Positions 9,816 to 64,000 of a stretch of DNA of 64,000 nt are shown here, piece by piece; positions within the stretch are counted from its first letter, which is position 1; the number at the start of each line of letters is the position of its first letter. The position numbers and the translations under genes were made by a program. The notes below the pieces were generated by a model. It saw nothing but the letters and a program-made list of their open reading frames with translations, searched no databases and was not told where the DNA came from. Origin of the DNA: Sphingobacteriaceae bacterium (GTDB lineage: Bacteria; Bacillota; Sulfobacillia; Thermaerobacterales; RSA17); the NCBI GenBank assembly GCA_035303785.1, contig DATGRI010000058.1, forward strand, positions 2,306 through 66,305, written 5' to 3'.

Positions 9816-11356
9816 TGCCCTTCACCTCCCCCATGGGATCCGCCGTCCCCGGCGGTGCCGGCGGTCGGGGCCCCCGCCCCGGCGGCGTTCACCGGCGGCA
9901 GCCGCCGGTGGTGGTCAAAGGCTTCCTGGTATGCCAGGGCCGCCCGGAGCAAGGTTTCCTCCCCGTAGGCCCGGCCCATAAGTTGCAACCCCACGGGCAT
10001 CCCTTCCACAAAGCCGCAGGGGATGGACAGGGCGGGGATGCCCGCCAGGCTGGCGGGCAGGGCTACAAAGTCGCCCCGGTACACGGCCCGGGTGCCGGCC
10101 CGCCAGGAATCGAAGGGGAAAGCCGTGGTGGGCGCCGCGGGGGCCGCCAGCAGGTCGTACCGGCTCAGGGCCTGCTCCAGTTCTTCCTTGATGACCCGCC
10201 GGAGGCGCAGGGCCTGCATGTAATAGGACTCGTACTGATCCCCGCTGAGAAGATGGGTACCCAGCAGGATGCGCCGCTTCACCTCGGGGCCCAAACCGGC
10301 GCCCCGGCTCTGCTCGTACAAGGCCGCCACGCCCTGCTGGTCGCCCAGGCGCAGGCCGAAGCGGACGCCGTCGTACCGGCTCATGGTGGACGAGGCCTCG
10401 GCGCTGACCAAAACGTAGTAGACGCCCAGGGAATAGGTCAGGGCCGGCAGGTCGCACTCCTCCACCTGGGCGCCCATGCCCGCCAGTTGATCCAGGGCTT
10501 CCCGCACGGCCGCCTTCACCGCCGGGTCCACAGGCTCCTGGAACAACTGCCGGGGCAGGCCGATGCGCAGCCCGTCCAGGCCCTTGGGGCCGGCTTCACC
10601 GGCCATTCCGGCCCAGTCTCCCACGGGTTCGGCCTCCGCCGATGCATCCCGGTCGTCGGGCCCCGCCACCACCTGCAGGGCCAGGGCGCAGTCCCGGGCA
10701 TCCAGGGCCAACAGGCCCACCGTGTCCATGGAGCCGGCCAAGGCCAGCAGCCCGTAGCGGGACACGCGCCCGTAGGTGGGCCGCAGCCCCGTGATGCCGC
10801 ACATGGCGGCGGGCTGGCGCACCGACCCGCCGGTGTCGCTGCCCAGGGACAGGGGCACCAGCCGGGCGGCCACCGCCGCCGCCGAGCCGCCGCTGGACCC
10901 CCCGGGCACCCGGTCCAGGTCCCACGGGTTCTTGGTCGCCTGGAAGGCTGAGTTGACGGTGGTGGCGCCCATGCCCATCTCATCCATATTGGTCTTGCCC
11001 ACGATGACGGCGCCCGCGGCCCGCAGCCGGGCCACCGCCGTGGCGTCGTAAGGAGGGATGTAGCCTTTCAAAATGTTGGAGCCGGCGGTGGTGGCCAGCC
11101 CTTTGGTGCTCAAGTTGTCTTTGACGGCCACGGGCACCCCTGCCAGGGGCCCCGGGTCTTCCCCGGCGGCCACCTTTTGGTCCACGGCCTCGGCCGCCGC
11201 CAGGGCCCCGGCTTCGTCCACCGCCAGGAAGGCCCCCAGGTCCTTGTCCAAGGCGCCGATGCGGTCCAGGGCGGCCTTGGTGATCTCCACCGCCGAAGCC
11301 TGGCCGGCCCGCACCGCCGCCGCCGTTTCCCGGGCCGTCATGATGTCGCCGGCCAT
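9812..11356 (-). CDS. gatA: Glu-tRNA(Gln) amidotransferase subunit A (amidase signature intact)
   Basis: Amidase signature GGSSGGSAAAVAA...GSDTGGSVRQPAA and VAVKDN lysine. ATG 11356 in a TGATG overlap with the gatC stop (TTG 11359 is an alternative). G/A-rich C-terminal tail. Confidence 0.93.
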   Translation of the reverse strand: MAGDIMTARETAAAVRAGQASAVEITKAALDRIGALDKDLGAFLAVDEAGALAAAEAVDQKVAAGEDPGPLAGVPVAVKDNLSTKGLATTAGSNILKGYIPPYDATAVARLRAAGAVIVGKTNMDEMGMGATTVNSAFQATKNPWDLDRVPGGSSGGSAAAVAARLVPLSLGSDTGGSVRQPAAMCGITGLRPTYGRVSRYGLLALAGSMDTVGLLALDARDCALALQVVAGPDDRDASAEAEPVGDWAGMAGEAGPKGLDGLRIGLPRQLFQEPVDPAVKAAVREALDQLAGMGAQVEECDLPALTYSLGVYYVLVSAEASSTMSRYDGVRFGLRLGDQQGVAALYEQSRGAGLGPEVKRRILLGTHLLSGDQYESYYMQALRLRRVIKEELEQALSRYDLLAAPAAPTTAFPFDSWRAGTRAVYRGDFVALPASLAGIPALSIPCGFVEGMPVGLQLMGRAYGEETLLRAALAYQEAFDHHRRLPPVNAAGAGAPTAGTAGDGGSHGGGEGQ

Positions 11357-24346: not shown

Positions 24347-25410
24347 GACCAAATCACCTCCGGCTTGCTGTCGGGCGGCGCCTCCTCTACGACGCCGATG
24401 GGCCAGGCGCCTCCCGTCAGGGGCGCCATGGCGGCACAAAATTCTTGGGCTTGGGCTGCCGGCACCACCACGGTGAAGCCGATGCCCAAATTGAAGGTGC
24501 GGCGCATTTCTTCTTCCTCCACGGGACCCAGGCGCCGGATCAGCCGGAAGACAGGCGGCTCCGGCCACGACCCGGCGTGGAGCCGGGCCCTGGTCCCCGG
24601 GGGCAGGGTGCGGGCCACGTTGTCCGTAAGGCCGCCGCCGGTGATATGGGCCATGGCCCGCAGGGAAAAACGGCCCCGGGCGGCTTTGACGGCGCCCGTG
24701 TAAAGGCGGGTGGGCTCCAGCAGCACTGTGCCCAACGGCGCCTCCAGTTCATCGATCTCCGTGGCTAAAGTCCAGCCGGTCCCCGCCAGCAGCACCCGCC
24801 GGGCCAGGGAAAAGCCGTTGCTGTGGAGGCCCGAGGAAGCCAAGCCCACGATGACGTCCCCCGGCTCCACCGACCGGCCGTCAATCAAGTCCCCGGCGGC
24901 CACCCCGCCCACGGCGAAGCCCGCCAATTCCATGTCGTCGGGGCCCATCATGCCGGGCAGCTCCGCCGTCTCGCCCCCCAGCAGGGCGCAGCCGGCCTCC
25001 CGGCAGGCGGCGGCGATGCCCGACACCACCGCTTCCGCCTGGTCCGGCCGGAGCCTGCCCATGGCCAGGTAGTCCAGGAAGAACCAGGGCTCGGCCCCGT
25101 ACACCAAAATGTCGTTCACATTCATGGCCACCAAGTCCCGGCCGGCCCCCTCCAGCCGCCCGGCTTCCCGGGCCAGGAGCAGCTTGGTGCCCACCCCGTC
25201 GGCCGCCGCCAGCAGGATGGTTTCCGGCTGGGCCCCCGGCACCCGGAACATGCCGGCAAAGCCCCCCACCCCGGACACCACCTCGGGCCGGGCGGTGGAG
25301 GCCGCCAGGGCCCGGAACCGTCCCACCAAGCTTTCGGCGGCATCGATGTCGACGCCGGCGGCCCGGTAGGTCACGGGCCGGCGGGCGTCGTCGCCCCGGC
25401 TTTCAGTCAT
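24343..25410 (-). CDS. purM: Phosphoribosylformylglycinamidine cyclo-ligase (AIR synthetase)
   Basis: YRAAGVDIDA, GVGGFAGMF, DGVGTKLLLA, HSNGFSLAR. ATG 25410 overlaps the purF 3' end by 8 nt. Confidence 0.92.
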   Translation of the reverse strand: MTESRGDDARRPVTYRAAGVDIDAAESLVGRFRALAASTARPEVVSGVGGFAGMFRVPGAQPETILLAAADGVGTKLLLAREAGRLEGAGRDLVAMNVNDILVYGAEPWFFLDYLAMGRLRPDQAEAVVSGIAAACREAGCALLGGETAELPGMMGPDDMELAGFAVGGVAAGDLIDGRSVEPGDVIVGLASSGLHSNGFSLARRVLLAGTGWTLATEIDELEAPLGTVLLEPTRLYTGAVKAARGRFSLRAMAHITGGGLTDNVARTLPPGTRARLHAGSWPEPPVFRLIRRLGPVEEEEMRRTFNLGIGFTVVVPAAQAQEFCAAMAPLTGGAWPIGVVEEAPPDSKPEVIWS

Positions 25411-26896
25411 GGGGGTCCCGATCTCCTTCCCGGTTCCCGTCGCCGGCTGCCGGCCCCTGCTCCCCCACCGGGGGGAAGCGGCCGGTGAAGCAGCCGTGAC
25501 AATAGGCATTTTCGTCTTGGCCGGTAACGGCCAACATTCCTTTCAAGGAAAGAAAGTACAAACTGTCGGCTCCCACCAGGCGCCGCATTTCCTCCACATC
25601 CCGGCCGGCCGCCATCAACTCGCCCCGGCGGCCGATGTCCACGCCGAAGGGGCACGGGTGGCGGAAGGGGGGCGAGGTGATGCACAGGTGGACTTGGGCG
25701 GCCCCCGCCTGGCGGACGGCGTTGACCAAGGGCCGGATGGTGCTGCCCCGGACGATGGAGTCATCCACCAGCACCACCCGCCGTCCGGCCACCACGTCCC
25801 GGATGGGGTTCAGCCGCCAGCGCACCCCGGCGGGCACGTAGCGGCCCCGGGGTCCGATGAAGGTGCGCCCCACATACCGGTTCTTCACCAAGCCCAGTTC
25901 GAAGGGGATGCCGGTAGCGGCGCTGTAGCCCATGGCCGCGGGCAGGCTGGCGTCGGGCACCCCCAGGACCACGTCAGCGTCCACCACGTGCTCCTGGGCC
26001 AGCTGCCGGCCCAAGGCCTGGCGGATGGCATAGGTGGAGCGGCCGCCGAAGAGGCTGTCGGCCCGGGCCAGGTAAATCAATTCGAAAACGCAGAAAGCCT
26101 GGGGGGTGTTTTCCAGGGAGGGCAGCCGCCCCCACTGCAGCCCCTGGTCATCGATCCAAACCCAGTGGCCCGCGGGCACTTCCTGGAGGGTGTCGCCGCC
26201 CACGGCATCAAAGGCGCAGCTTTCCGAGGCCAGCAGGTAAGCCTGGTCCAGGCGGCCCAGCACCAAAGGCCGGATGCCGTGGCGATCGCGAAAGCCGAGG
26301 ATGCCTTGGGGGGTGGCGTAGACGGCGGCCATGCCCCCGTCCACTTGGGTGAGGGAGTGGCCCAGGGCTTGGGGCCAGCCGTCGCCCGGAGCCCGGGCCG
26401 CCAGGTGGGCCAGGATTTCCGCGGCGTCGCCGGAGCGGAAGACGGCCCCTTGGGCCTCCAGCCGCTGCCGCAGGGCATCGGCCCCGGCCAAGGCGCCGTT
26501 GATGGCCACGGCCAGGTGGCTGTCCCGGCACCGGACCACCAGGGGCTGCCGGTCCGCCGGCTCCGTGGACTGCTGGACGTGGCCCAGGACGATGGTGCGG
26601 GCTCCCCGGGGACCTAAGGCCAGGTCGGCCAGCTCCTCCCCGGAGAACACGTCGGTGACCAGGCCCCTGCCTCCCAGCCGGGCGAACTGGTCATCCCCGG
26701 GACCCCAGGCGGCCATGCCCGTCCTTTGCTGCCCCCGGTGCTGGAGGGCGAACAAGCCTTGGTAGGCAATGTGAACCCCTTCGGGATGCCCGAAGACGGC
26801 GAACAGGCCCGAGTGGTCCCCGGCGGCGCCCCCGCCGGAGCCCGACCGGGCGCTCCCCGACCCTCCCGCCGGCGGCCTCACTGCCGGGGCGCCCAT
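25403..26896 (-). CDS. purF: Amidophosphoribosyltransferase homologue with non-canonical glutaminase active site
   Basis: The PRTase and Fe-S parts are conserved (VVLVDDSIVRGST, SPPFRHPCPFGVD, YCHGCFTG, FCVFELIY). The position of the Ntn nucleophile Cys reads Ser (DHSGLFAVFG; TCG codon at 26812..26810). GHVRY is replaced by GHVQQ. The start is ATG 26896 or GTG 26881 (GTGA overlap with the purL stop). The 813-aa track ORF is rejected. Confidence 0.85.
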   Translation of the reverse strand: MGAPAVRPPAGGSGSARSGSGGGAAGDHSGLFAVFGHPEGVHIAYQGLFALQHRGQQRTGMAAWGPGDDQFARLGGRGLVTDVFSGEELADLALGPRGARTIVLGHVQQSTEPADRQPLVVRCRDSHLAVAINGALAGADALRQRLEAQGAVFRSGDAAEILAHLAARAPGDGWPQALGHSLTQVDGGMAAVYATPQGILGFRDRHGIRPLVLGRLDQAYLLASESCAFDAVGGDTLQEVPAGHWVWIDDQGLQWGRLPSLENTPQAFCVFELIYLARADSLFGGRSTYAIRQALGRQLAQEHVVDADVVLGVPDASLPAAMGYSAATGIPFELGLVKNRYVGRTFIGPRGRYVPAGVRWRLNPIRDVVAGRRVVLVDDSIVRGSTIRPLVNAVRQAGAAQVHLCITSPPFRHPCPFGVDIGRRGELMAAGRDVEEMRRLVGADSLYFLSLKGMLAVTGQDENAYCHGCFTGRFPPVGEQGPAAGDGNREGDRDPHD

Positions 26897-29727
26897 GGCG
26901 GCTTGACTCCCCGGCCCGGCTCGGGCAGGTGATCGACAGGAGTGGACAACAAGGAGCGGCCCGCCACGGTTACGGCCAACCGCCCGCCGCCGGCGGCGCC
27001 CAGCACCGCAGCCGGGACACCCGCCGACCGGGCGGCCGCCAGCACTTGATCCGCCGCCGCCGGCGGCGTGCTCACCAGCACCCGGGAGGGCCCTTCGCCG
27101 AAGAGCAGGGCTTCGGCGTCGCCGTCCCACTGGTCCGGGGACAGGTCCACCTGCACCCCCAAAGGCCCGCCGGCGGCGGTGCGGCAGGCCCGGGCCAGGG
27201 CGGCGGCCAGGCCGCCCAGGTCTATGCCGGCGGCCGAAGCCAGCAGCCCGTCGCTGTGCAGCTGCTGGAGCAAGGCCCACAGGCGGGCTTCCAAATCCGA
27301 ATCCACTTGGGGCGGGCGGCCCTGCACCCGGCCGTAGCGGACGGCCAGGTACTCGCTGCCTGCCAGGTCGCCGGCCAAGGGCCCCAAGACGAGCACCGCA
27401 TGGCCCGCGGCCAGCCAGCCGGGGCCCAGCACCGGCCGTCCCGGCGGGAGAACCCCCACCACCCCCACCACCGGGGTGGGGTAGACGCCTTGGCCGCCCC
27501 GTTCGTTGTAAAGGCTCACGTTGCCGCCCGTCACCGGCACGTCCAGGCTGCGGGCGGCGGCGCCCATGCCTTCGATGATCTCGGTGAATTCCCACATGAT
27601 GGCGGGATCTTCGGGGCTGCCCAGGTTGAGGCAGTTGGTCAGCCCCAAGGGCTTGGCCCCGGTGCAGGCCACCCGCCGGCCCGCCTCGGCCACGGCGGCG
27701 GCGGCGCCCCGCCGGGGATCCAGCCACGTCAGCCGGCCGTTGCCCGCCAGGGCCACCACCAGATGCTGGCCCGTCCCGGGCACCGGCACCGCCGCCGCTC
27801 CCGTGGCCAGCAAGGTGTTGTCGTCGTGCTTGCCGCCCAGCCAATGGGCTTCCGTCAGGTTGGGGCCCGCCAGCAAATCCACCAGGGCTTCGTCATAGTC
27901 GGTGGAGCCGGCTCCGGCGGCGGCCTCCCCGCCGGCGGGGGCAGGCTCCCAGCGCCGGGCCAGGTCGGCGGGCTCCGCCACAGGCCGCCGGTAGGCCGGC
28001 GCCCCCTCCGTCAGAATGGTGGCCGGCAGGGCCGCCAGTTCCACATCGCCCATGGTCACCCGCACCAGGCCGTGGTCGGCCACCCGGCCGATGCAGGCCC
28101 CGGGCACGTTCCACTGGGTCAGGATTTGCTCCACCTGGGACTCCTTGCCCGCCTTGACGATGAGCAGCATCCGCTCCTGGGTTTCCGAAAGCATGATCTC
28201 GTGGGGGCTGAGGCGGGGCTCCCGGCAGGGCACCAGGTCCAGGTCCAGGTCCACGCCCTGGCCGGCCCGCCCGGCCGTCTCCGAGGCCGCCGAGGTGATG
28301 CCCGCCGCGCCCAGGTCGTTGACGCCCACCAGCAGGTCCGCCTCCATCATGGCCAGGCAGGCCTCCACCAGGCGGCGCTTCAACTGGGGGTTGGCGGCAG
28401 GCACCGTGGTGGGGGGGATGACCTCGTCGTCCAAGCCCCGGGACGAGGCGCTGGCCGCCCGCACCCCGTCGGGCCCCGTGCGGGCGCCCACCAGGTAAAT
28501 GGGGTTGCCCACCCCTTCTGCCCGGCCCCGGAACACCCGGTCCCGGTCCACGAAGCCGGCCGCCAGCACGTTGACCAGGGGCGCGGGGCGGTACCCCTCG
28601 CCGGAAAAGACGCTGGCGGTGAAGGTGGCGATGCCGGTGCCGGCAGCGTAGTCGGCCATGCCCTCGGCCGCCCCCAGCAGGATGTCTTGGTTGTTGCCTT
28701 CCTCCAGGGGGCCTACCCGCAGGGCCCCCGCCAGGAGGGCCGGCCGGGAGCCCACGGCCAGGATGTCCCGGACGATGCCCCCGGCGCCGGTGGCGGCGCC
28801 CCGGTGGGGATCCAGGCTGGAAGGATGGTTGTGGCTTTCACAGCGCAGGGCCACGGCCACGGGGCCGCCCAGGTCCACCACGCCGGCGTTCTCCCCGGGG
28901 CCCAGGAGCACCTGGGGCCCTTCCCGGGGCAGCCGGGCCAGGTGGATGCGGGTGCTCTTGTAGGAGCAGTGCTCCGACCACATGGCTCCTACCATTTCTA
29001 ATTCCAACTGGTTGGGGGCCCGGCCCAGCCCCTGGACCAAATCGTCGTATTCCTCCCGGGTCAGGCCCACGGCCTGCCAGGGCTCCCGGTGGGCCGCCAC
29101 CCGGTCGTAAACTTCCTGCCACCCCGGCTGGGCCTGCTGCTCGGCGAGGGCCAGCCGGAGGGTCCGGGGCGAGAGCTCGCCGGCCAGGAGGAGGGCGCCG
29201 TCTTCCGTGCGGCCGAACTCCAAACGCAGGTGGATCAGGTCCAGGCCCCTTTCCTTAAGGAATGAGCCCAGCACATCGTTGACGGCCAGGGCCACCTGCT
29301 CCAGCCGCTCCACTTCGTCGGGGCCGGCCAGCCCCAGCACCTGCACATGATGGTGGTTGACCAGAACCTCCTGGGACTCGTCCCCCCGGTAATAAAGCTC
29401 CACCACGGGCCGGGGCAGGGTGGAGCCGGGGGTCAGGCCCAGGCGCCGGGCCCAGGGCTCTTCCGCGGCGTTCCGCACCAGCACCGCCAGGGGGATGGGG
29501 GCTGTCCCCTGGACCAGCATCTCCCGGGGGTTCACCCGGGCGATGAAGTGGTTGGGTATGCCGGCTTCCGTCAAAACTTGAAACAGGCGGGCGGAAATCT
29601 CGTTGCCGGCCTCTTCCTTGAAATGAATCAAACAGCGATCGGGCCGGGCCGTGCCGTAAACGATCTTCGCCTCGTCTTCCCGCAGCTTCGGCCTGGCGCC
29701 GGCGTCCGGCGGCGATTGTCTATCCAT
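26878..29727 (-). CDS. purL: FGAM synthase subunit PurL fused to an N-terminal degenerate PurC (SAICAR synthetase)-like domain
   Basis: A single uninterrupted 949-aa ORF with ATG 29727 after GGGGAGGGGGAGGG. Residues ~225-949 are PurL (MWSEHCSYKS, ESHNHPS, GAATGAGGIVRD, MLSETQERMLL, GGNVSLYNE). Residues ~15-215 are collinear with PurC (GIPNHFI, PLAVLVRN, VVELYYRGD, LRLEFG, LAGELSPRTLRL) but lack the YEGKAK and DSATAFNG...GKG segments. Confidence 0.85.
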   Translation of the reverse strand: MDRQSPPDAGARPKLREDEAKIVYGTARPDRCLIHFKEEAGNEISARLFQVLTEAGIPNHFIARVNPREMLVQGTAPIPLAVLVRNAAEEPWARRLGLTPGSTLPRPVVELYYRGDESQEVLVNHHHVQVLGLAGPDEVERLEQVALAVNDVLGSFLKERGLDLIHLRLEFGRTEDGALLLAGELSPRTLRLALAEQQAQPGWQEVYDRVAAHREPWQAVGLTREEYDDLVQGLGRAPNQLELEMVGAMWSEHCSYKSTRIHLARLPREGPQVLLGPGENAGVVDLGGPVAVALRCESHNHPSSLDPHRGAATGAGGIVRDILAVGSRPALLAGALRVGPLEEGNNQDILLGAAEGMADYAAGTGIATFTASVFSGEGYRPAPLVNVLAAGFVDRDRVFRGRAEGVGNPIYLVGARTGPDGVRAASASSRGLDDEVIPPTTVPAANPQLKRRLVEACLAMMEADLLVGVNDLGAAGITSAASETAGRAGQGVDLDLDLVPCREPRLSPHEIMLSETQERMLLIVKAGKESQVEQILTQWNVPGACIGRVADHGLVRVTMGDVELAALPATILTEGAPAYRRPVAEPADLARRWEPAPAGGEAAAGAGSTDYDEALVDLLAGPNLTEAHWLGGKHDDNTLLATGAAAVPVPGTGQHLVVALAGNGRLTWLDPRRGAAAAVAEAGRRVACTGAKPLGLTNCLNLGSPEDPAIMWEFTEIIEGMGAAARSLDVPVTGGNVSLYNERGGQGVYPTPVVGVVGVLPPGRPVLGPGWLAAGHAVLVLGPLAGDLAGSEYLAVRYGRVQGRPPQVDSDLEARLWALLQQLHSDGLLASAAGIDLGGLAAALARACRTAAGGPLGVQVDLSPDQWDGDAEALLFGEGPSRVLVSTPPAAADQVLAAARSAGVPAAVLGAAGGGRLAVTVAGRSLLSTPVDHLPEPGRGVKPPWAPRQ

Positions 29728-33496: not shown

Positions 33497-34726
33497 TCAT
33501 TCCCATTCGATGGTGCCGGGGGGCTTGGCGGTAATATCATAGGCCACCCGGGTGATGCCGGGCACTTCCCGCAGGATGCGGTCCGACAGCCGGGCCAGCA
33601 GGTCGTGGGGCAGGCGGGCCCACCCGGCGGTGACGGCATCCTGGCCGGTTACGGCCCGCAGCACCAGGGCCTCGCCGTACACCCGGCGGCCGTCGTCGGT
33701 GCCCACGGCCCGGGCGCCCGTCAAGACGGCGAAATACTGCCAGATGTCCCGGTCCAGCCCCGCCTGCCGGATCTCCTCCCGGAGGATGGCATCGGCCCGG
33801 CGCAGGACGGCCAGGCGCTGCGGCGTTACCTCTCCCAGCACCCGGATGGCCAGCCCGGGGCCGGGGAAGGGCTGGCGCCAGATGAGTTCCGGCGGCAGCC
33901 CCAGGGCGACGCCCACATCCCGCACCTCGTCCTTGAACAAATAGCGCAGGGGCTCCAGCAGGTCCAATTCCATCCGCTCGGGCAGCCCCACGTTGTGGTG
34001 GGTCTTGAGGGCTTTCCCCGACAGGAGCCCGCTTTCCAAGACATCGGTGTAGAGGGTGCCCTGGAGAAGGAAATCCATGTGGCCCAGGCGCCGGGCCTCC
34101 TCTTCGAAGACGGCGATGAATTCAGCCCCGATGCGGCGCCGCTTTTCTTCGGGGTCGGCCACCCCGGCCAGGGCCGCCAGGAACCGCTCCCCCGCATCCA
34201 CCGTGACTACGTTCCAGCCGAAGCTGCTGAAGGATTGGGGCACTTCCCGGGCCTCGCCCTCCCGCAGGAGGCCGTGGTCCACGAACAGGCACACCAGGCG
34301 CCGGCCGATGGCCCGGTGGACCAATGCCGCCGCCACCATGGAGTCCACGCCCCCGCTGAGGCCGGCCACCACGGTGCCGTCGCCCACCTTGTCCCGAATG
34401 GCCTGCACCGCCTGGTCCACCTGGGCCGCCGGCGACCAGCCGCCCCGACAGCCGCACTCCCGGAACAAGAAATCCCGCAGCCGGTCTTCGGCCACGGGCT
34501 CGCTGCCGGCCGCCAGGACGGGCAGTTCCGCCAATCCCGAAGCAGGGTCCTGATGGGTCGTCAACACCACGCCCCGCACCGCGGGCAGATCCCAGCCCTT
34601 GGGCGCGGTGCCGGGGGGCTGCAGTTCACAGTAAACGCCCAAGCTGCGAATTTGCCGCACCAGGCGGTGGCCCGCGCCGGTGCCGCCATCCACCACGATG
34701 ATGGCTTCGTCCCGGGAACGGAACAT
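33497..34726 (-). CDS. guaA: GMP synthase with intact ATP-pyrophosphatase/dimerisation domains but a truncated GATase domain
   Basis: The ATP-PPase P-loop ([11 protein letters not shown]) and C-terminus ([39 protein letters not shown]) are conserved. The N-terminus keeps only [27 protein letters not shown]... and then joins directly to the ...[10 protein letters not shown] linker. There is no G(V/I)CYGMQ Cys or HPE His/Glu segment. The protein is 409 aa, versus about 510-525 aa for fused GuaA as I recall. Confidence 0.85.
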
Positions 34727-49964: not shown

Positions 49965-50717
49965 TCAAACTTCCAGCCCTGCCCCCTTGGCCGCCGCCGC
50001 CTCCACCAAGCCGGCGAACAAGGCCATGAACCGGGGCTGGTACGCCGCCATGGTCTCGGGATGCCACTGCACCCCCAGGATGAAGGAGCCGTCGCCCTTT
50101 TCCACCGCTTCCACCACACCGTCGGGGGCCGCGGCGGCCGCCTGGAAGCCCGGCGGCACCAAATCCACGGCCTGGTGGTGAAAACTGTTGACCCGCAGGG
50201 GCCCCTCTCCCAGGAGCCGGGCCAGCAGGGTGCCCGCCGCGACGGCCACGTCGTGGGTGCCGTACCAAGGGGGGGCCTGCTGCCGGTGCTTCAGGGCCCC
50301 GGGCACCTGGCTCGGTATATCTTGCAGCAAGGTGCCGCCGGCGGCAACGCACAGCACCTGGAGGCCCCGGCAAATGCCCAGGATGGGCATGCCGGCGGCC
50401 AGGGCGTCCCGGACCAGGGCCAGTTCCGCCCCATCCCGCTCCGGGGTGATGCGGCCCAGCCGCGGCAGGGGATCCTCCCCGTAGTGGTTGGGATCCACGT
50501 CGGCGCCGCCGGCCAGCAGCAGGCCGTCCACCCGCTCCAGCCAGCAGGCCGTCAACTCCGGCTCCGCCAGGGCGGGAATGAGCACGGGCAGCCCTCCCGC
50601 CTCGGCCACCACGGCGGCGTAGGCCGCCGGCAGGGTCAACTGCCCCTCCGCGGTGTGATCCGTCGGAATGCCGATGACCGGCCGCCGTCCCCTCTCCCGG
50701 ACCAGGCTGTCCCTCAT
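49965..50717 (-). CDS. Peptidase C26 / gamma-glutamyl hydrolase-type class-I glutamine amidotransferase-like protein
   Basis: RPVIGIPTD, LLLAGGADVDPNHYGE, nucleophile elbow ILGICRGLQVL, HHQAV, GVQWHPE. The catalytic Cys/His/Glu context appears intact. Confidence 0.8.
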   Translation of the reverse strand: MRDSLVRERGRRPVIGIPTDHTAEGQLTLPAAYAAVVAEAGGLPVLIPALAEPELTACWLERVDGLLLAGGADVDPNHYGEDPLPRLGRITPERDGAELALVRDALAAGMPILGICRGLQVLCVAAGGTLLQDIPSQVPGALKHRQQAPPWYGTHDVAVAAGTLLARLLGEGPLRVNSFHHQAVDLVPPGFQAAAAAPDGVVEAVEKGDGSFILGVQWHPETMAAYQPRFMALFAGLVEAAAAKGAGLEV

Positions 50718-53016: not shown

Positions 53017-54165
53017 TCAGTCCTCGGTGAGGCTCTTCACCAGATGGCGGGGCTGGTCCACATTGCGGCCAAGGGCTACGGCCGCGTGATAGGCCAGCAG
53101 CTGCAGGGGCACTACCGACAGCATGGGCCCGAAGATGGGCTCCACCGGGGGTATGGGCAGGAAGTGGTCGGCATGGCGGGCCAGTTCACGGCTGCCGGCG
53201 GGAGCCACCGCCACCACCTGGGCTCCCCAGCGGCGCACTTCCTGGAAGTTGCGGGCCATCATCTCCTCCAGGTCGGGCCTGGTGACGATGCCCACCACGC
53301 TGTAGTCGGAATCAATCAAGGCCATGGGGCCGTGGCGGAACTCGCCGGCGGCGCACGCTTCAGCATGGATGTAGGAAGTTTCTTTAAGCTTCAATTGCCC
53401 TTCATGGGCGGTGATCCAGTCCATCTGCCGGCCGATGTAGAAGGCGTGGCGCCGCCGGGCCAAGTCCCGGCCGGCTTGGGCCACGGCTTCCTCCTCCGCC
53501 AGCACGGCGGCCACCTGGTCGGGCATGGCCGCCAGGCCCGCCAGGATGCGGGCCGCCTCTTCCCGGGGCAAGGTCTCCTGGGCCCGCCCCAAGCCGACGG
53601 CCAGCAGGACTACCGCCACCAACTGGGCCATGTAGGCTTTGGTGGAGGCCACCGCCTCCTCGGTGCCGGCCTGGGTGATGAAGGTGAAATCGGCTTCCCG
53701 GGTGATGGCGCTGCCGGGCGCGTTGGTCACCGCCAGGACAGCTGCGGCGCCCCGCTGCCGGGCAGCCGCCAGGGCGGCCAGGGTATCCTTGGTTTCCCCC
53801 GACTGGCTGACGGCCACGGCCAAAGTGCCCGGAGGAACCCGGAATTCCCCGAAGCGGAACTCCGACGCGGGTTCGGTGCGGGCGGGCAGGCCCGCCACCT
53901 GCTTGACCAGGGCGTCGCCCACCAAGCCGGCATGGTAGGCGGTGCCGCTGCCCAAAAACAAAACATGCCGCACCTGGGCCAGGGCGGCCTGATCCAAACC
54001 CGTGCCGGACCAATCCACATCCCCCGCCTGCCGTCCCAGGCGGCCGGCCAGGGTACGGCTGATGGCCTGGGGCTGCTGGAAAATCTCCTCATGCATCTTA
54101 TGACGGTGGCCTCCCGGCCGGCCGGCGCCGGCCTGGGTCCCTTCTATGGGCAGTTCCTTGACCAT
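53017..54165 (-). CDS. GlmS-like sugar isomerase (2xSIS) protein lacking the N-terminal glutaminase domain
   Basis: 382 aa, starting MVKELPIEG...HRHKMHEEIFQQPQAISRTL, which corresponds to the start of the GlmS isomerase half. SIS motifs (FLGSGTAYHAG, VSQSGETKDTL, EEAVASTKAY). GlmS-type C-tail VPLQLLAYHAAVALGRNVDQPRHLVKSLTED. ATG 54165 lies 7 nt after AAGGAGA and only 14 nt after the glmM stop. Confidence 0.85.
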   Translation of the reverse strand: MVKELPIEGTQAGAGRPGGHRHKMHEEIFQQPQAISRTLAGRLGRQAGDVDWSGTGLDQAALAQVRHVLFLGSGTAYHAGLVGDALVKQVAGLPARTEPASEFRFGEFRVPPGTLAVAVSQSGETKDTLAALAAARQRGAAAVLAVTNAPGSAITREADFTFITQAGTEEAVASTKAYMAQLVAVVLLAVGLGRAQETLPREEAARILAGLAAMPDQVAAVLAEEEAVAQAGRDLARRRHAFYIGRQMDWITAHEGQLKLKETSYIHAEACAAGEFRHGPMALIDSDYSVVGIVTRPDLEEMMARNFQEVRRWGAQVVAVAPAGSRELARHADHFLPIPPVEPIFGPMLSVVPLQLLAYHAAVALGRNVDQPRHLVKSLTED

Positions 54166-54179
54166 GGTTGTGGTCTCCT

Positions 54180-55517
54180 TTACTGTCGGGCGGCTTCCAC
54201 GATGGCGGCCGCAATGGCTTCCGCCGCCTCCCGGGCCTGGGTTTCGTCCATCGCCTCCACCATCACCCGGATGACCGGCTCGGTGCCCGAGGGACGCACC
54301 ACGATGCGCCCCTGCTCCGCCAGCCCGGCCGAGGCCGCTGCCACGGCGGCCTCCACCGCCGGCAGGGCGGCAACCCGGTGATGGTCGTCCACGGCAATGT
54401 TGCGGTGGACCTGGGGCCAAGGCTTCATCCGGGCCGCCAGGTCGGCCAGGGAGGCCCCGGTGATGTCCATTTCCCGCACCATTTCCACCGCCGTCAACAA
54501 ACCGTCTCCCGTCATCTGGCCCGTTTCGGCAAATATGATGTGCCCCGACTGCTCACCTCCCAGAGTCAAGCCCTGGGCCATCATGGTTTCGGCCACATGG
54601 CGATCGCCCACGGGGCAGCGGACCACCCGGCCGCCGGCGGCGGCCAGGGCCTGGTCCAAGCCCATGTTGCTCATTACCGTGGCCACCAAGGCCCGCTTGG
54701 GCAGGGCGTCCCGGTCCAGCCGGCCCAGGCCCGCCACGGCCAAAATGTAGTCACCGTCCAGCAGCCGGCCCTGGTCGTCCACGGCCAGGCAGCGGTCCCC
54801 GTCCCCGTCGAAGGTGAAGCCCGCCTGGGCGCCTTCGGCCAGCACCGCCTCCGCCGCCACCTGGGGGCTGGTGGAGCCGCAGTCCACATTGATGGCGGCG
54901 CCGTCGGGGGTGTGATGCAGGGCCGTCACCCGGGCACCCGCCGCCCGGAACAGGCGGGGGGCCAGTTCCCACAAGGCGCCGTGGCCGCAGTCCAACACCA
55001 GGTGGCGGCCGGCGGCTCCGTCCCCCAGGCGCTCCAGCAGGAACTGCAGGTAAGGGTTCAAGGCATCGGGATCTTGATAAAGGCGGCCCCCGGACCCGCC
55101 GGCGGGCGCCGGCTCACCGTCCCGGGCGATGAAATCCTCCAGGGCCTTTTCCGTCTCGGGGGGGATTTTCGTCCCCTGGGGGCCGAAAAACTTGAGGCCG
55201 TTGTACTCGGGCGGGTTGTGGGAGGCGCTGATGACCGCTGCGGCAGCAGCGCCGTGGACCCGGGCCAGGAAAGCCACCGCCGGTGTAGGGACCACCCCCA
55301 GCAGGAGAACCTGCCAGCCGGCCTGGACCAGGGCGGAAGCCAAGGCGGCCTCCAACTCCACCCCCGACGTCCGGGTGTCCCTGCCGATCAGCATCAAGGG
55401 CGAGGCCTCCCCGGAATGGAGAACCCGGGCCGCCGCCCGTCCCACTTTGGCGAACAACTCCGGGGTCAAATCCTGGTGGGCGATGCCCCGGATGCCATCG
55501 GTGCCGAAGGATACCAT
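54180..55517 (-). CDS. glmM: Phosphoglucosamine mutase
   Basis: MVSFGTDGIRGIA, phosphoserine loop ISASHNPPEYNGLK, TFDGDGDRCLAVD, GGEQSGHIIF. ATG 55517 lies 6 nt after GGAGG. Confidence 0.93.
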   Translation of the reverse strand: MVSFGTDGIRGIAHQDLTPELFAKVGRAAARVLHSGEASPLMLIGRDTRTSGVELEAALASALVQAGWQVLLLGVVPTPAVAFLARVHGAAAAAVISASHNPPEYNGLKFFGPQGTKIPPETEKALEDFIARDGEPAPAGGSGGRLYQDPDALNPYLQFLLERLGDGAAGRHLVLDCGHGALWELAPRLFRAAGARVTALHHTPDGAAINVDCGSTSPQVAAEAVLAEGAQAGFTFDGDGDRCLAVDDQGRLLDGDYILAVAGLGRLDRDALPKRALVATVMSNMGLDQALAAAGGRVVRCPVGDRHVAETMMAQGLTLGGEQSGHIIFAETGQMTGDGLLTAVEMVREMDITGASLADLAARMKPWPQVHRNIAVDDHHRVAALPAVEAAVAAASAGLAEQGRIVVRPSGTEPVIRVMVEAMDETQAREAAEAIAAAIVEAARQ

Positions 55518-55569: not shown

Positions 55570-56298
55570 CTACTCCTCAGGACTTTCCCCGGGCGGTTCC
55601 GGCGCACCGGGCTCATCCTCCAGGGGCGGGCTGGTGTTGACGGGGACCACCACCCGCACCGTTTCGGGCACCACGGTGACACCTGCCACCTGCCGGCCCG
55701 CCTCGTCCACGGCGAAAACCCTGACTCCTTCGAAGACCATATTCCCGGTGATGCCTTCGATATCAACGGCGCCCACCACCCGGGCCACCTCGTTGACCCT
55801 GGTCTCGGCGCCCGTCAATTTCACCTGGCTGGGAAACACCAGGGGGCTGGCCACGCTGACCTGGCCGTTGGAGTTGCCCTCCAGGGAAATTTCCACGGGC
55901 AGCTCCCGCTCGGCGAAGGACTCCAAGGCCAGCACCGCCTCCGACGGGGTGATCTCGATGGCCTGGAGGCCGTCGGGCAGTTCCACCCGGATGACCCGGG
56001 CCACGATGCCCGCCTCGGCATCGGACAAATCCACCACCGCCGTCACTTCCGACGGCTCCAAGTCGTCGAACAGGCTGGGGCGGCCCCGCACGGTGACGCT
56101 GACCCGCTCGGGGTCCATAGTAACGATGGCCAAACCTTCGGGCAGGTTCCGGGGCACCACTTCCACCAAGGGGAAGATCTGGGTGGCCTCGGGGTTCTGC
56201 TCGCTGCTCACATACAGCCAGAGGCTGATGGCCAGCAGCACCGACAAAATCTTGATGTTGATATCCCGTCGCAACAGTCGCTCGATCAATGGCGTCAC
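55570..56298 (-). CDS. cdaR: YbbR-domain protein, CdaA regulator
   Basis: N-terminal TM (NIKILSVLLAISLWLYV), then YbbR-like beta-rich repeats. It occupies the conserved position between cdaA and glmM. The start is GTG 56298 or TTG 56286. Confidence 0.75.
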   Translation of the reverse strand: MTPLIERLLRRDINIKILSVLLAISLWLYVSSEQNPEATQIFPLVEVVPRNLPEGLAIVTMDPERVSVTVRGRPSLFDDLEPSEVTAVVDLSDAEAGIVARVIRVELPDGLQAIEITPSEAVLALESFAERELPVEISLEGNSNGQVSVASPLVFPSQVKLTGAETRVNEVARVVGAVDIEGITGNMVFEGVRVFAVDEAGRQVAGVTVVPETVRVVVPVNTSPPLEDEPGAPEPPGESPEE

Positions 56299-56326: not shown

Positions 56327-57154
56327 TCAATTCTTGTTGCGCTGCCCGAACAGGAAGGGCCGCTGGTTGCCCTCGGCGGCCGGCAGCAGCAGGTTGGTCA
56401 GTCGTTGCCGCAGGGCGTCGTCGTCCAATTTCTGGATCAGCTTGCCCCCGTGGGCGATGGAGATGGCGCCCGTTTCCTCGGAGACCACCACGGCCACGGC
56501 GTCGGAATGCTCGCTGATGCCCACCGCCGCCCGGTGCCGGCTGCCCAGGGAGATATCCAAAGGCTGGTCCGTCAAGGGCAGGAAGCAGCCGGCAGCCACC
56601 ACCCGGTCGCCCCGGATGATGACGGCGCCGTCGTGGAGGGGCGTGCGGGGCAGGAACAAGTTGATGAGCAGTTCTTTGGACACCAGGCCGTCGATGGGTA
56701 TGCCCGTCTCAGCCACGTCCCCCAGACCGGTAGTCCGTTCGATGACGATGATGGCGCCGGTGCGGTTCCGGGACAAGGTTCGGGCCGCATCGGCCACCAC
56801 CTGGATGACCTGGCTCACGTCGGGCTCCTGCCCCAGGTATGACAAGGAACGGCGGAACAGGCCCCCCTGGCCCACTTGCTCCAAGGCCCGGCGCAGTTCC
56901 GGCTGGAACAGGATGGGGATGCCCACCAAGAGGGCGATTTGGGCGTAGCCCAGCAGCCAGTGAAGGGTTTCCAAGCGCAGCCAGCGGCTCACGGGAGTGG
57001 CCACCAGGACGACGGCGAGGCCGGTGATGATGGCGGTGGCCCTGGTTCCCCGGATGAGGAGAAAAAACCGGTAGATGATGTAAGCGACGATTAAGATGTC
57101 GATTACGGCGAGGACCACATCGAGAAAAGTCAGGCTGCGCGCTAGGGAAATCAT
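56327..57154 (-). CDS. cdaA: Diadenylate cyclase CdaA
   Basis: Three N-terminal TMs, then the DAC domain (TGAIIVIERTTGL, PLHDGAVIIRGDRVVAAGCFLPL, LGSRHRAAVGISEHSDAVAVVVSEETG). Confidence 0.92.
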   Translation of the reverse strand: MISLARSLTFLDVVLAVIDILIVAYIIYRFFLLIRGTRATAIITGLAVVLVATPVSRWLRLETLHWLLGYAQIALLVGIPILFQPELRRALEQVGQGGLFRRSLSYLGQEPDVSQVIQVVADAARTLSRNRTGAIIVIERTTGLGDVAETGIPIDGLVSKELLINLFLPRTPLHDGAVIIRGDRVVAAGCFLPLTDQPLDISLGSRHRAAVGISEHSDAVAVVVSEETGAISIAHGGKLIQKLDDDALRQRLTNLLLPAAEGNQRPFLFGQRNKN

Positions 57155-58913: not shown

Positions 58914-58982
58914 AGCGGGTGTCCTCCTACCTGCCGGTATATGACCGATGGGCCCGGCGCCGGGAAGGGCCGGGAGGTCGGC

Positions 58983-59939
58983 TTACGTGTTTTTCGCATA
59001 GGGGATGCTCAATCCCTTTCTGCCATCATGCCCGGCGGCGTTCCCGTCGGGCGGGGCGGGCGGGCGGCCCACATCCCTATGTTCCGTAGTAACCGAGGGC
59101 AGCCGGCCCCGCAAGTGCTCCCACAGCATGTTGCCGATGACCACCGACCTGTGCCGGCCGCCGGTGCAGCCGATGGCGATGGTCATGTGGGCCTTGCCTT
59201 CGTTGACGTACTGGGGAATGAGAAAGTCCAGCAGCCCCTTGAGGCGCTCCAGCAGCTGGTGGGTGATGGGCCACTTCAGCACGTAGTCCTTCACCGGCTG
59301 GTCGTTGCCCGTCAGGGGGCGCAGGGAGGGCACGTAATAGGGATTGGGCAGGAACCGCACGTCCAGCACCAGATCGGCGTCCATGGGCAGGCCGTGCTTG
59401 AAGCCGAAGGTCAAAATGGTCAGGGTCATGCCCGAGGCCTGGGGATCGGCGTACCAGTTGCTGAGGCGCCGGGCCAGGTCCCCGGGGGTCATGCTGCTGG
59501 TGTCGATGATGCGGTGGGCCCGGCCCCGCAGGACTTCCAGGCGGCGGGCCTCCATGGCGATGCCGTCGGCGATGCGGCCGCCCAGGACCATGGGGTGGCG
59601 GCGCCGGGTCTCCTTGAAGCGGCGCACCAAGGTGGCCTCGTCGGCCTCCAGGAAGAGGACCTGATAGGAGATGCCCATGGTGTCCAGTTCATCCAAGGCT
59701 TCCACCGTACGGTCGAAGAAGGCGCCGCCCCGCACGTCCATGACCACGGCGGCCCGGCTCACCCGGCCGTCGGTTTGCAGGCAAAGCTGGGCAAAGGTGG
59801 GCAGCAGGGCGGGCGGCATGTTGTCGACACAGAAAAACCCCAGGTCTTCCAGGCATCGGATGGCCAGGGTCTTCCCCGCACCCGAAAGACCGGTGATGAT
59901 CAGGAACTGGAGGTCGTTGCGCTCCCGGCCTTGGGTCAT
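58983..59939 (-). CDS. rapZ: RNase adapter / nucleotide-binding protein RapZ (YvcJ)
   Basis: LIITGLSGAGKTLAIRCLEDLGFFCVDNMP, and C-terminal IAIGCTGGRHRSV. The start is set at ATG 59939 (the 453-aa track ORF is rejected). Confidence 0.9.
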   Translation of the reverse strand: MTQGRERNDLQFLIITGLSGAGKTLAIRCLEDLGFFCVDNMPPALLPTFAQLCLQTDGRVSRAAVVMDVRGGAFFDRTVEALDELDTMGISYQVLFLEADEATLVRRFKETRRRHPMVLGGRIADGIAMEARRLEVLRGRAHRIIDTSSMTPGDLARRLSNWYADPQASGMTLTILTFGFKHGLPMDADLVLDVRFLPNPYYVPSLRPLTGNDQPVKDYVLKWPITHQLLERLKGLLDFLIPQYVNEGKAHMTIAIGCTGGRHRSVVIGNMLWEHLRGRLPSVTTEHRDVGRPPAPPDGNAAGHDGRKGLSIPYAKNT

Positions 59940-60036
59940 CCTTTTGCCCCTTTCTGCTGCTGCAGGTCGATCAACAGACGGCCTCTTCCAGGGAACCAGG
60001 TCCGCTCCGGCGAAGGAGCCGGGAGGAGGCACCGAC

Positions 60037-62937: not shown

Positions 62938-64000
62938 TCAAGCCCCGGCGCTTTGGCGCCACCGGCTACGGGCGGTCCGGAGAGGGGCGGCCCCGGCGGG
63001 CAAGGCAGCGGCCCCGGGGAGCCGCCAGCGGGCACGAAAGTCCCGGCCGTCATCCCACGGGAGGCCGGCGGCCGTCATGGCCTGCAAAGGGGCCAGGGCC
63101 CGGCGGCTGGACTGAAAGTCGGGCAGCCGGGCCAGGTCGTCCCAGATGACGCCCAGCCGGTCCCGGAAGGGAGCCTGGTCCCCCCGGTAAAAGGCGGCCT
63201 GCAGGGCCGGATCCTGAAACAGGTGCAGAGACAGGCGCCGGTGCCCCCGGGCCACCAGCCAGGCCAGGTGCAGCACTCCCCGGGTCAGGGCCGGGTCCAC
63301 CAGCCAACTGGGCAGGGTGCGGTATTCGAAGCCCCCGTGACGCTTCAAGCGCACGTCGCCCAGGAAGCCGTGGCGCCGCCGGCGGGCTGCGGCGGCTTCT
63401 TGGGGCTCCAGCATGAACACCGGCACCGCCAGGTAGGTGTCCAAAGCCCGCAGCAGGCTGCCCGACAGGGCCACCCCGCTGAAGTGGATGTGGCCGCCGG
63501 TGGGATAGCCGTTGAAGGGCTGGGCGCCGGCCAGCCATTCCAGATCCCCCGCGGCTCCTTGCCGGGCGGCCAGGGCCAGGCAGCGCCGGATTTCCCGCAG
63601 GAGGCCGTCGGGATGGGATCGGGCGTTGGGGCGCAGTTCCCCCACGGGGTATTCCCCCGGGCCGGCCCCCGACTGGGTGTCGCAGCCTACGGCACCATAG
63701 CGGGAAAAGAAATGGGATGCGGCCACCATGCGGCCGCTGTCGCGATGGCGCAGCATGAACTCGGGGTCGGCCCCCAGGCGGATGGACCCGGCCCGGTCCT
63801 GGCCCGACACCCGTTGCGCCAGGAGTTCCTTCAACTTGGCGGCTCCCTGGCGGCCCAGCATGGGTCCCAGGCGGATGCCCGCCACCGCGGGATCCCGGGC
63901 CGCCTCGCCGTCCACGGCCAGGGACACTACCGCCGAATCCAGCCCCAGGCAGTGGAGGGCCCGCAAGGCCGTGCCGGTGATCCGCTCCCACCGGCGCCAT
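62938..64000 (-). CDS. Putative amidoligase (phiEco32-like COOH-NH2 ligase type 2 / GCS-superfamily-like), 5' end possibly beyond window
   Basis: IRLGADPEFML, ELRPNA, YPTGGHIHFSG and GGFEYRTLPSW resemble, from memory, the COOH-NH2 ligase type-2 family. The reading frame stays open from the TTG at 63966 to the window edge. Confidence 0.45.
   Translation of the reverse strand, partial: WRRWERITGTALRALHCLGLDSAVVSLAVDGEAARDPAVAGIRLGPMLGRQGAAKLKELLAQRVSGQDRAGSIRLGADPEFMLRHRDSGRMVAASHFFSRYGAVGCDTQSGAGPGEYPVGELRPNARSHPDGLLREIRRCLALAARQGAAGDLEWLAGAQPFNGYPTGGHIHFSGVALSGSLLRALDTYLAVPVFMLEPQEAAAARRRRHGFLGDVRLKRHGGFEYRTLPSWLVDPALTRGVLHLAWLVARGHRRLSLHLFQDPALQAAFYRGDQAPFRDRLGVIWDDLARLPDFQSSRRALAPLQAMTAAGLPWDDGRDFRARWRLPGAAALPAGAAPLRTARSRWRQSAGA

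Follow-up and report, generated by a model that had tools for sequence, protein, structure and literature searches.

A headless GlmS downstream of cdaA-cdaR-glmM, a candidate glucosamine-6-phosphate synthase using free ammonia

The headless glmS locus

Among amidotransferases, GlmS is the standard textbook case of an enzyme that is unable to use free ammonia; it is regarded as the universal and essential entry to cell-wall amino sugars and as a drug target. The stretch of DNA analysed here (hereafter the window, 64,000 nucleotides (nt) of contig DATGRI010000058.1) carries on its minus strand a GlmS homologue that is reduced to the isomerase (synthase) half of the enzyme and lacks the N-terminal nucleophile (Ntn) glutaminase domain. 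This gene, referred to below as headless glmS, and its immediate surroundings consist of the following features.

53017..54165, minus strand: headless glmS coding sequence, 382 residues, two-SIS isomerase/synthase half of GlmS (Pfam, NCBIfam and PDB matches; ratio of nonsynonymous to synonymous substitution rates, dN/dS)
53017..53058, minus strand: codons of the diverged C-terminal tail (C-tail) DQPRHLVKSLTED and stop codon (N600H, A602V, V605L, V607E and E608D relative to canonical GlmS)
54166..54179, minus strand: spacer between glmM and headless glmS, 14 nt, with the Shine-Dalgarno sequence AGGAGA
54180..55517, minus strand: glmM, phosphoglucosamine mutase, 445 residues as called on metagenome contigs (TIGR01455, 480 bits, above the cut-off)
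55570..56298, minus strand: cdaR, YbbR-domain regulator of CdaA (Pfam YbbR)
56327..57154, minus strand: cdaA, diadenylate cyclase (TIGR00159, 256 bits, above the cut-off)

The reading frame of headless glmS runs from an ATG at 54165-54163 to a stop codon at 53019-53017, and the span first reported for it, 53017-54179, corresponds to the coding sequence plus the spacer. The glmM stop codon, TAA, lies at 54182-54180, and the ATG of headless glmS follows 14 nt further on, the distance that had been given for it from the sequence alone. Within the spacer, AGGAGA (54179-54174) is followed by the eight nucleotides CCACAACC and then by the ATG. The original prediction had placed the start 7 nt after AAGGAGA; the Shine-Dalgarno sequence is indeed there, and the small discrepancy disappears when the distance is counted from AGGAGA, which gives 8 nt. 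The junction with glmM shows no site resembling a promoter or a terminator, and the length of the spacer leaves no room for a promoter or for the glmS ribozyme. Consistently, Rfam scans detected no glmS ribozyme (RF00234) at the gathering score in the whole window, and none at E<=1 in the interval 52.5-57.5 kb, which bears out the earlier claim that the ribozyme is missing and could not be accommodated.

Pfam recognises two SIS domains in the 382-residue protein and nothing else. A tblastn search with full-length Escherichia coli GlmS as the query returned no match to a glutaminase domain in the window, and extending the frame upstream to a TTG at 54420 takes it into glmM without gaining any Pfam domain. 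The glutaminase domain is thus entirely absent, as had been proposed, which rules out glutamine-dependent GlcN6P synthesis in cis, and the in-frame sequence upstream is glmM overlap. The gene stands downstream of cdaA-cdaR-glmM, which is the Firmicutes position of glmS and the one it occupies in two relatives (loci L014 and L016).

Relationship to GlmS and to SIS-fold deaminases

The NCBIfam GlmS models cover the headless protein at profile positions 245-605 of 607 only, i.e., over the C-terminal 60%, and the scores fall below the equivalog cut-offs (364.2 versus 418.05 bits for TIGR01135 and 370.9 versus 381 bits for NF001484). Together with the Pfam result and the synteny, this coverage agrees with the initial description, in which a GlmS homologue made up of the isomerase half alone occupies the slot behind cdaA-cdaR-glmM. 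In the PDB, E. coli GlmS and its isomerase domain 1MOQ are matched with 288 bits, versus at most 85 bits for SIS-fold deaminases; residues 14-380 of the headless protein align to residues 2-366 of 1MOQ (E=1e-84). Identity to E. coli GlmS is 40-41%. Residues 20-35, HRHKMHEEIFQQPQAI, align to YRHYMQKEIYEQPNAI of the E. coli enzyme, and the tail DQPRHLVKSLTED aligns to the E. coli tail DQPRNLAKSVTVE. Both ends are therefore those of the GlmS isomerase half, as the original prediction had it, although the sequence of the tail has diverged.

The models built for isomerase-only relatives give far lower scores: 111.7 bits against a cut-off of 430 for NagB-II (NF046059), 90.4 against 580 for GlmD (NF041128), 28.6 against 529 for AgaS (TIGR02815) and 36.8 against 430 for FrlB (NF008481). 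Scores so far under the cut-offs indicate that the headless protein is neither GlmD, NagB-II, AgaS nor FrlB. The phylogenetic placement points the same way, since neighbour-joining groups four headless proteins of the window clade with GlmS and leaves E. coli AgaS and FrlB outside in 98 of 100 bootstraps. The window protein, like every one of the 16 headless proteins described below, shows the hallmarks of the GlmS synthase domain, two SIS domains with their catalytic and phosphate residues; those of the full enzyme, an N-terminal Ntn domain with Cys1 (GATase_6/7), are lacking. We therefore regard the headless protein as a recurrent GlmS-derived variant. It departs from GlmS in three defining features, having no glutaminase domain, no canonical C-tail and a score under the family cut-off.

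Comparison with known systems helps to delimit this variant. With GlmS proper (TIGR01135 / PRK00331) it shares a two-SIS synthase domain that is 40-52% identical, the catalytic and ligand residues, and the slot after cdaA-cdaR-glmM, but it has neither the Ntn domain of about 240 residues nor the ribozyme, and it differs in the tail (HLVKSLTED versus NLAKSVTVE) and in the substitutions K503R and I489T. Its boundaries equal those of the isolated isomerase domains of E. coli GlmS (1MOQ) and C. albicans Gfa1 (2POC), which are laboratory-made and of which it is the natural version; those constructs are engineered and keep the canonical C-tail, whereas the headless protein is natural and selected and its tail is remodelled. 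In work ascribed to Denisot in 1991 and Olchowy in 2007, engineered isomerase domains were reportedly weakly or partially active with ammonia.

Among the isomerase-only relatives, GlmD belongs to an archaeal chitin-catabolic context, with no glmM or glmU operon. Like the headless protein, GlmD of Thermococcus kodakarensis (2CB0, 2DEC) is isomerase-only with two SIS domains; the headless protein nevertheless gives only 64-67 bits to these PDB entries. GlmD has been described as an isomerase-only two-SIS enzyme acting on glucosamine-6-phosphate (GlcN6P) and fructose-6-phosphate (Fru6P) (PMC10201695, citing Tanaka 2005). NagB-II, the Shewanella SO3506 family (3HBA, 8EOL), is a SIS-fold GlcN6P deaminase without a glutaminase domain (PMC10201695). 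It is allosterically activated by N-acetylglucosamine-6-phosphate and found in nag catabolic regulons, whereas the headless protein clusters with GlmS. AgaS and FrlB are likewise SIS pairs, with equivalents of Glu488 and His504 and an Arg at the position of Lys503, but they are about 21% identical, have no Lys603 tail and act on other substrates. A precedent of another kind is provided by NAD synthetase, in which a two-subunit enzyme exists alongside single-domain NadE forms that use free ammonia in vivo (PMC3376133). These show that an amidotransferase can exist without a glutaminase and work on free ammonia; the enzyme is, however, unrelated, and its single-domain form is thought to be ancestral, whereas the loss of the head in GlmS is secondary and recurrent.

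Conservation and selection in the window clade

The identical protein, in identical synteny, is present on 17 independent contigs from ENA, Logan and JGI assemblies. Seventeen contigs of the same structure show that the gene is not an assembly artefact, and they also answer the alternative, raised when the gene was first noticed, that an upstream glutaminase-coding segment had been lost in assembly. The lineage is carried by the samples ERZ27256727, SRR13522557, SRR15110391, SRR15110393, SRR29457790 and JGI 3300009095. At least one of the source samples, Ga0079224, is a compost metagenome (PMC8986864). A homologue search returned three further headless relatives, P0002 (87% identical), P0003 (66%) and P0004 (64%), full-length GlmS appearing only from 52% identity downward. 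The genes of P0002 and P0004 immediately follow glmM within the extended block of synteny seen in the window, and P0003, which lies on a short contig, is encoded behind a glmM-sized open reading frame (ORF) fragment. Across these four headless lineages the spacers range from 14 to 40 nt and the Shine-Dalgarno sequence is conserved. Pairwise dN/dS values of headless glmS are 0.15-0.23, close to those of glmM (0.19-0.27) and cdaA (0.12-0.15). Headless glmS is under purifying selection in the four lineages (64-100% identity).

No carrier was found in a GTDB-based collection of species representatives: a contig scan with the headless protein gave a single archaeal contig, whose gene was rejected as a headless relative because it encodes an ordinary full-length GlmS of 619 residues, and this archaeal-only match indicates that the lineage is absent from the GTDB species set. 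A search of JGI metagenomes by two universal GlmS motifs gave, among the matches listed, generic GlmS of 37-48% identity. The searchable literature contained no report of a natural headless GlmS or of glutaminase loss in several enzymes at once.

Headless GlmS in other lineages

A HMMER search over 1.84 billion cluster representatives, among which the window clade is one representative, revealed twelve more headless clusters. Their proteins are 345-391 residues long, start with a Met a few residues before the motif Y-x-H-F-M-L-K-E-I and end in non-canonical tails. Headless clusters are nearer to some full-length GlmS (49-59% identity) than to one another (42-48%), and the 16 headless proteins taken together are monophyletic in 0 of 100 bootstraps. 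Two of the clusters could be placed in their genomic context. The first, P0373 (HHP50805.1; locus L106, 8001-9092), comes from a metagenome-assembled genome of 55% GC labelled Moorella mulderi, where the order is cdaA-cdaR-glmM, 15 nt, headless glmS; its public annotation is GlmS. The second, P0488 (locus L107, 2907-4025), lies on a contig of 40% GC in the order atpC-glmU, 8 nt, headless glmS, which is the classical proteobacterial glmUS slot, and its nearest full-length relative is E. coli GlmS. No ribozyme, adjacent glutaminase gene or nag genes were found at either locus. The further headless clusters are P0361, P0364, P0366, P0376, P0380, P0385, P0387, P0416, P0439 and P0490.

That glmS has become headless in its canonical biosynthetic slots in unrelated bacteria points to a recurrent event, followed by the same substitutions. 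The argument for recurrence draws on the differing operons (glmM versus glmU), on GC contents of 69, 55 and 40% and on the differing nearest full-length relatives; trees built from distances alone do not entirely distinguish repeated loss from effects of rate.

Short proteins that retain the canonical tail are a different matter. One of them, P0056 (373 residues), was rejected as a headless or split GlmS, as it results from a +1 frameshift in a G-run (GGGGGG) of an ordinary glmS preceded by a ribozyme; at this locus (L105, 2742-4567) a 235-residue glutaminase ORF is followed by the 373-residue isomerase ORF, an example of a fragment that imitates a headless gene. Nine other short canonical-tail proteins are probably fragments as well.

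Residues kept and changed

In all four headless proteins of the window clade, the full set of residues involved in Fru6P binding or catalysis in E. coli GlmS, Thr302, Ser347, Gln348, Ser349, Thr352, Val399, Ser401, Lys485, Glu488, His504 and Lys603 (E. coli numbering), is kept, among them Glu488, His504 and Lys603, whose catalytic roles in GlmS have been described (PMC9272926). A conservation of 93% or more among 111 full-length GlmS defines 128 alignment columns, of which 85 were unchanged and 25 differed in three or all four of the headless proteins. The strongest cluster of changes is the C-terminus (N600H/S, A602V, V605L, V607E/D/T and E608D). Ala602 and Val605 are said to be channel residues that were mutated by Floquet et al. 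in 2007. The sequence NLAKSVTVE ends 105 of 110 full-length matches; the window protein, which reads PRHLVKSLTED versus PRNLAKSVTVE, does not have this invariant C-tail, which closes the site in GlmS. The C-tail of GlmS also contributes to the ammonia channel, and communication between the isomerase and glutaminase domains depends on its four terminal residues (PMC3224219). A further change concerns Lys503, which is invariant in full-length GlmS and is Arg in the headless proteins of the window clade, as in AgaS and FrlB.

The same pattern emerges from a broader comparison of 117 full-length and 16 headless sequences.

Position 602: Ala in 113 of 117 full-length; Thr or Val in 16 of 16 headless (4 of 117 full-length are non-Ala)
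Position 503: Lys in 117 of 117 full-length; Arg in 13 of 16 headless
Position 489: Ile, Val or Leu in 113 of 117 full-length; Thr or Ser in 14 of 16 headless
Position 607: Val in 112 of 117 full-length; changed in 15 of 16 headless
Catalytic residues: conserved in full-length; conserved in 16 of 16 headless

Glu608 is changed in the headless set too. The active site is thus intact, whereas the surface on the side of the glutaminase is relaxed or remodelled, a pattern that fits an enzyme which has lost its GlmS-type glutaminase partner. These observations provide a means of recognising headless GlmS: a start no more than about 30 residues from the motif Y-x-H-F/Y-M-x-K/E-E-I, retention of the catalytic residues, A602T/V and an end other than VTVE, usually accompanied by K503R and I489T/S. 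By V602, R503, T489 and the tail LTED the window protein belongs here, and the signature is absent from the canonical-tail fragments.

Origin of the headless gene and loss of the ribozyme

The closest full-length relatives of the window protein are P0005 (52% identical, from a Thermaerobacterales metagenome-assembled genome), P0006 (from a JGI contig) and P0009 (Caldinitratiruptor). At the P0005 and P0006 loci, the order is cdaA-cdaR-glmM followed by a gap of 255-389 nt and glmS. The gap holds a glmS ribozyme (92-110 bits), and P0009 has the ribozyme too. In all, Rfam detects RF00234 with 72-110 bits in loci L014, L015, L016 and L105; it was not found in the window or in loci L001, L007, L011 and L106. 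Neighbour-joining recovers the four headless proteins as monophyletic in 99 of 100 bootstraps and tentatively sets the clade at the base of the sampled GlmS, with E. coli GlmS outside the group of headless proteins and P0005 in just 47 of 100. The best explanation is that headless glmS descends, in its original place, from an ordinary glmS of the Firmicutes type. In the simplest history, a deletion of about 1 kb took the ribozyme leader together with about 230 codons and brought the isomerase half up to the end of glmM.

Loss of glutaminase function in PurF, GuaA and PurL

Further genes of the window that encode, or would be expected to encode, amidotransferases show comparable lesions.

25403..26896, minus strand: purF with an inactivated Ntn glutaminase site (Cys1 to Ser, Arg73 to Gln, Tyr74 to Gln, Asp127 to Ala, and a deletion of 4 residues in the Arg73 loop)
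26878..29727, minus strand: purC-like::purL fusion, ORF of 949 residues; purS and purQ (the latter for the glutaminase subunit), usually located between purC and purL, are missing there
33497..34726, minus strand: guaA with a gutted glutamine amidotransferase (GATase) domain; about 95 N-terminal remnant residues are left and the core from Cys86 to His181/Glu183 is deleted

The dN/dS values for these genes were measured against the 88% lineage. In PurF, the Ntn domain is still present, with a leader of about 28 residues before Ser1, and the same changes are found in relatives of 88% and 57% identity (Ser or Gly at position 1); C1, R73 and D127 are kept in 116-117 of 120 PurF homologues. The dN/dS of purF is 0.16. 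Three other PurF homologues (P0129, P0130 and P0132) keep Cys1 and have a degenerate Arg73 loop (GHVRHTADEDG, GHVCSAGSAG and GHVRCAAPDED, respectively), and they may represent intermediate stages of glutaminase decay in other lineages.

GuaA matches the GMP synthase model from position 179 onward only, its ATP pyrophosphatase (ATP-PPase) and dimerisation domains being intact, and 17 related short GuaA proteins of 404-430 residues, all metagenomic, were found. Selection differs along the gene, with a dN/dS of 0.14 for the ATP-PPase part and 0.45, i.e., relaxed, for the GATase remnant. A short GuaA that is 58% identical occurs in a more distant lineage from the same sample (L102; ENA ERZ27256727, contig k141_4628767) in the order purB-purH-groEL-phosphoribosyltransferase-guaA'-pcrA. 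No purC, purL, purF, purM or purN was found at this guaA' locus, and purine gene content may vary across the group.

The purine genes of the window are ordered purE-purB-[purC-like::purL]-purF-purM-purN-purH-purD. The same purC-like::purL fusion, of 943 residues, is found in the 88% lineage (L103, 6312-9143), and the glutaminase domain of E. coli PurL has no match in the window or in L103. The dN/dS of the fusion is 0.21, that of its purC-like part 0.34 (relaxed); the latter scores 114 bits, under the purC cut-off of 190, and presumably lacks a segment found in Bacillus subtilis PurC. The window showed no further purC and no purK. General decay of the purine pathway was rejected for this lineage as the cause of the PurF and PurQ lesions, as the pur genes have dN/dS values of 0.11-0.21, apart from the GuaA remnant and the purC-like part. 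Three strictly anabolic amidotransferases that have lost glutaminase function and are still selected must draw on a source of nitrogen other than glutamine hydrolysed in cis.

Neighbouring genes

Three genes downstream of headless glmS lies a GATase gene.

49965..50717, minus strand: stand-alone class-I GATase / peptidase C26, PuuD-like, 250 residues

Its Cys-His-Glu triad is intact (GICRGLQ and WHPE motifs), and its best match is PuuD, with 133 bits, below the cut-off. The gene order throughout the clade is glmS'-acpS-nnr-C26-tsaE-tsaB-rimI-tsaD. In the closest pair, the dN/dS of the C26 gene is 0.38, above that of its neighbours. It was rejected as a dedicated partner, as it stands near headless glmS in the window clade only and has no counterpart at L106 or L107; a role as a glutaminase acting in trans for headless GlmS is possible but unsupported.

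Elsewhere in the window, a RapZ-like yvcJ (about 58980-59940, minus strand) is followed by a polyprenyl synthase gene and rex. In B. subtilis, yvcJ is followed by yvcK (glmR) and whiA. GlmR is an activator of GlmS, and the missing glmR after yvcJ might relate to the headless state of GlmS. One or two genes for a phiEco32-like COOH-NH2 ligase (PF14395) are located beside DUF2089/PspC across the clade (in the window at 62938-63966, minus strand, and upstream; in L011 at 1-2478). At L106, an array of clustered regularly interspaced short palindromic repeats (CRISPR; RF01315) occupies 10431-10733, with five repeats running to the contig end, about 1.3 kb downstream of the headless glmS.

Free ammonia as the candidate nitrogen donor

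Altogether, these findings lead us to favour, with some reserve, a model in which headless GlmS would act as a reversible GlcN6P synthase on free ammonia, the lineage being on its way to giving up glutamine as a donor of nitrogen. What we infer here is that free NH3 is the substrate, that the reaction runs in the synthetic direction and that it is the main cellular source of GlcN6P. In this model, the two-SIS domain would directly catalyse the reaction Fru6P + NH3 <-> GlcN6P + H2O. His504 would open the sugar ring and Lys603 would form a Schiff base at C2, free ammonia would take the place of channelled ammonia, and Glu488 would carry out the isomerisation of the ketimine to the aldose. GlcN6P would then be handed to GlmM, whose gene would be co-transcribed and is probably translationally coupled with headless glmS, and GlmM would pull the product toward UDP-N-acetylglucosamine. 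Because glutamine would not be hydrolysed, the reaction would be reversible and thermodynamically self-limiting, which would make feedback by GlcN6P on a ribozyme dispensable. With three strictly anabolic enzymes dependent on a nitrogen donor other than cis-hydrolysed glutamine, a high intracellular concentration of ammonia is the economical common explanation, and it would also drive the reversible reaction toward synthesis. The anabolic formation of GlcN6P from ammonia, which the original prediction had suggested, is strengthened, but not proven, by the selected headless state, the biosynthetic slots, the diverged C-tail and the losses in PurF, GuaA and formylglycinamidine ribonucleotide (FGAM) synthase.

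Several points weigh against this model. Amination of Fru6P by the isolated E. coli domain is reportedly poor, and below approximately tens of millimolar ammonium the equilibrium is on the side of deamination. GatA and the stand-alone C26 GATase have intact active sites, so that glutamine hydrolysis has not been lost throughout. A second full-length glmS, a nagB or a nagA salvage route is possible elsewhere in the genome, and purQ, purS and a GATase subunit for GuaA might be encoded outside the window. All members of the headless group are known from sequence alone, and full-length GlmS has been described as the sole amidotransferase that refuses ammonia (PMC9272926).

The alternative that survives best, which we nonetheless regard as unlikely, is that headless GlmS is a catabolic GlcN6P deaminase of the GlmD or NagB-II kind. 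GlcN6P would then be supplied by a different GlmS or by amino sugars that the cell imports or recycles, and the enzyme would drain the excess to Fru6P and NH3. This is the same reaction reversed, and its equilibrium is on the deamination side. All characterised isomerase-only relatives (GlmD, NagB-II, AgaS and FrlB) are deaminases or deglycases (PMC10201695; NCBIfam names), K503R is common to headless GlmS, AgaS and FrlB, and a second glmS could exist elsewhere in the genome. Nevertheless, the scores of 90 versus 580 bits for GlmD and 112 versus 430 bits for NagB-II are far under the cut-offs, and headless glmS occurs in glmM or glmU operons of three lineages that are unrelated to one another, where its surroundings contain neither nagA nor a transporter or regulator gene. 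Moreover, the ancestral glmS has been replaced, not supplemented, and the parallel loss of glutaminase in strictly anabolic enzymes points to ammonia as a donor.

A split GlmS, in which a separate glutaminase (either the C26 GATase close by or an Ntn domain of the GlmS type from another locus) would dock and supply ammonia from glutamine, is more doubtful still. Two-subunit amidotransferases are common, a two-subunit NAD synthetase being known (PMC3376133), and an intact C26 GATase stands three genes downstream in every locus of the clade. On the other hand, the C-tail and other invariant positions linked to the glutaminase have diverged in 16 of 16 headless proteins, as would be expected if no GlmS-type partner docks. 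Neither L106 nor L107 has a glutaminase gene beside headless glmS, the C26 protein has its best match, under the cut-off, in PuuD, and the sole apparent case of a split enzyme, P0056, is a frameshifted ordinary glmS. Finally, truncated GlmS calls from contig ends and frameshifts are common in metagenomes (P0056 and the nine short canonical-tail proteins), but an assembly artefact or decaying pseudogene has a negligible chance of accounting for an identical structure on 17 independent contigs, an ORF kept intact over 36% protein divergence with a dN/dS of 0.15-0.23, a conserved Shine-Dalgarno sequence and a specific substitution signature that is missing from fragments.

Returning to the synthesis of GlcN6P from free ammonia, a wider version of this model can be put forward tentatively, and we give it somewhat less than an even chance. 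Headless GlmS would be a recurrent natural free-ammonia GlcN6P synthase that arose independently in several phyla, with convergent A602T/V, K503R, I489T and loss of VTVE, and in the window lineage GlmS, PurF, FGAM synthase and GMP synthase would all have switched to ammonia.

Significance

If GlcN6P is indeed formed from free ammonia in this way, the synthase half alone would sustain the cell-wall amino-sugar pathway, and headless GlmS would illustrate an evolutionary route from GlmS to deaminases of the GlmD and NagB-II type. The substitution signature marks the residues that solely serve the glutaminase domain (the C-tail, K503 and I489), and it lets annotators separate true headless genes from fragments. 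Current pipelines call headless proteins simply GlmS (e.g., HHP50805.1). The parallel decay of PurF, GuaA and PurLQS suggests a rewiring of nitrogen transfer from glutamine to ammonia across the whole organism. Compost is an ammonia-rich habitat, and such a rewiring could explain ammonium-dependent compost thermophiles; if true, dependence on ammonium for growth in habitats rich in ammonia would have a genetic explanation.

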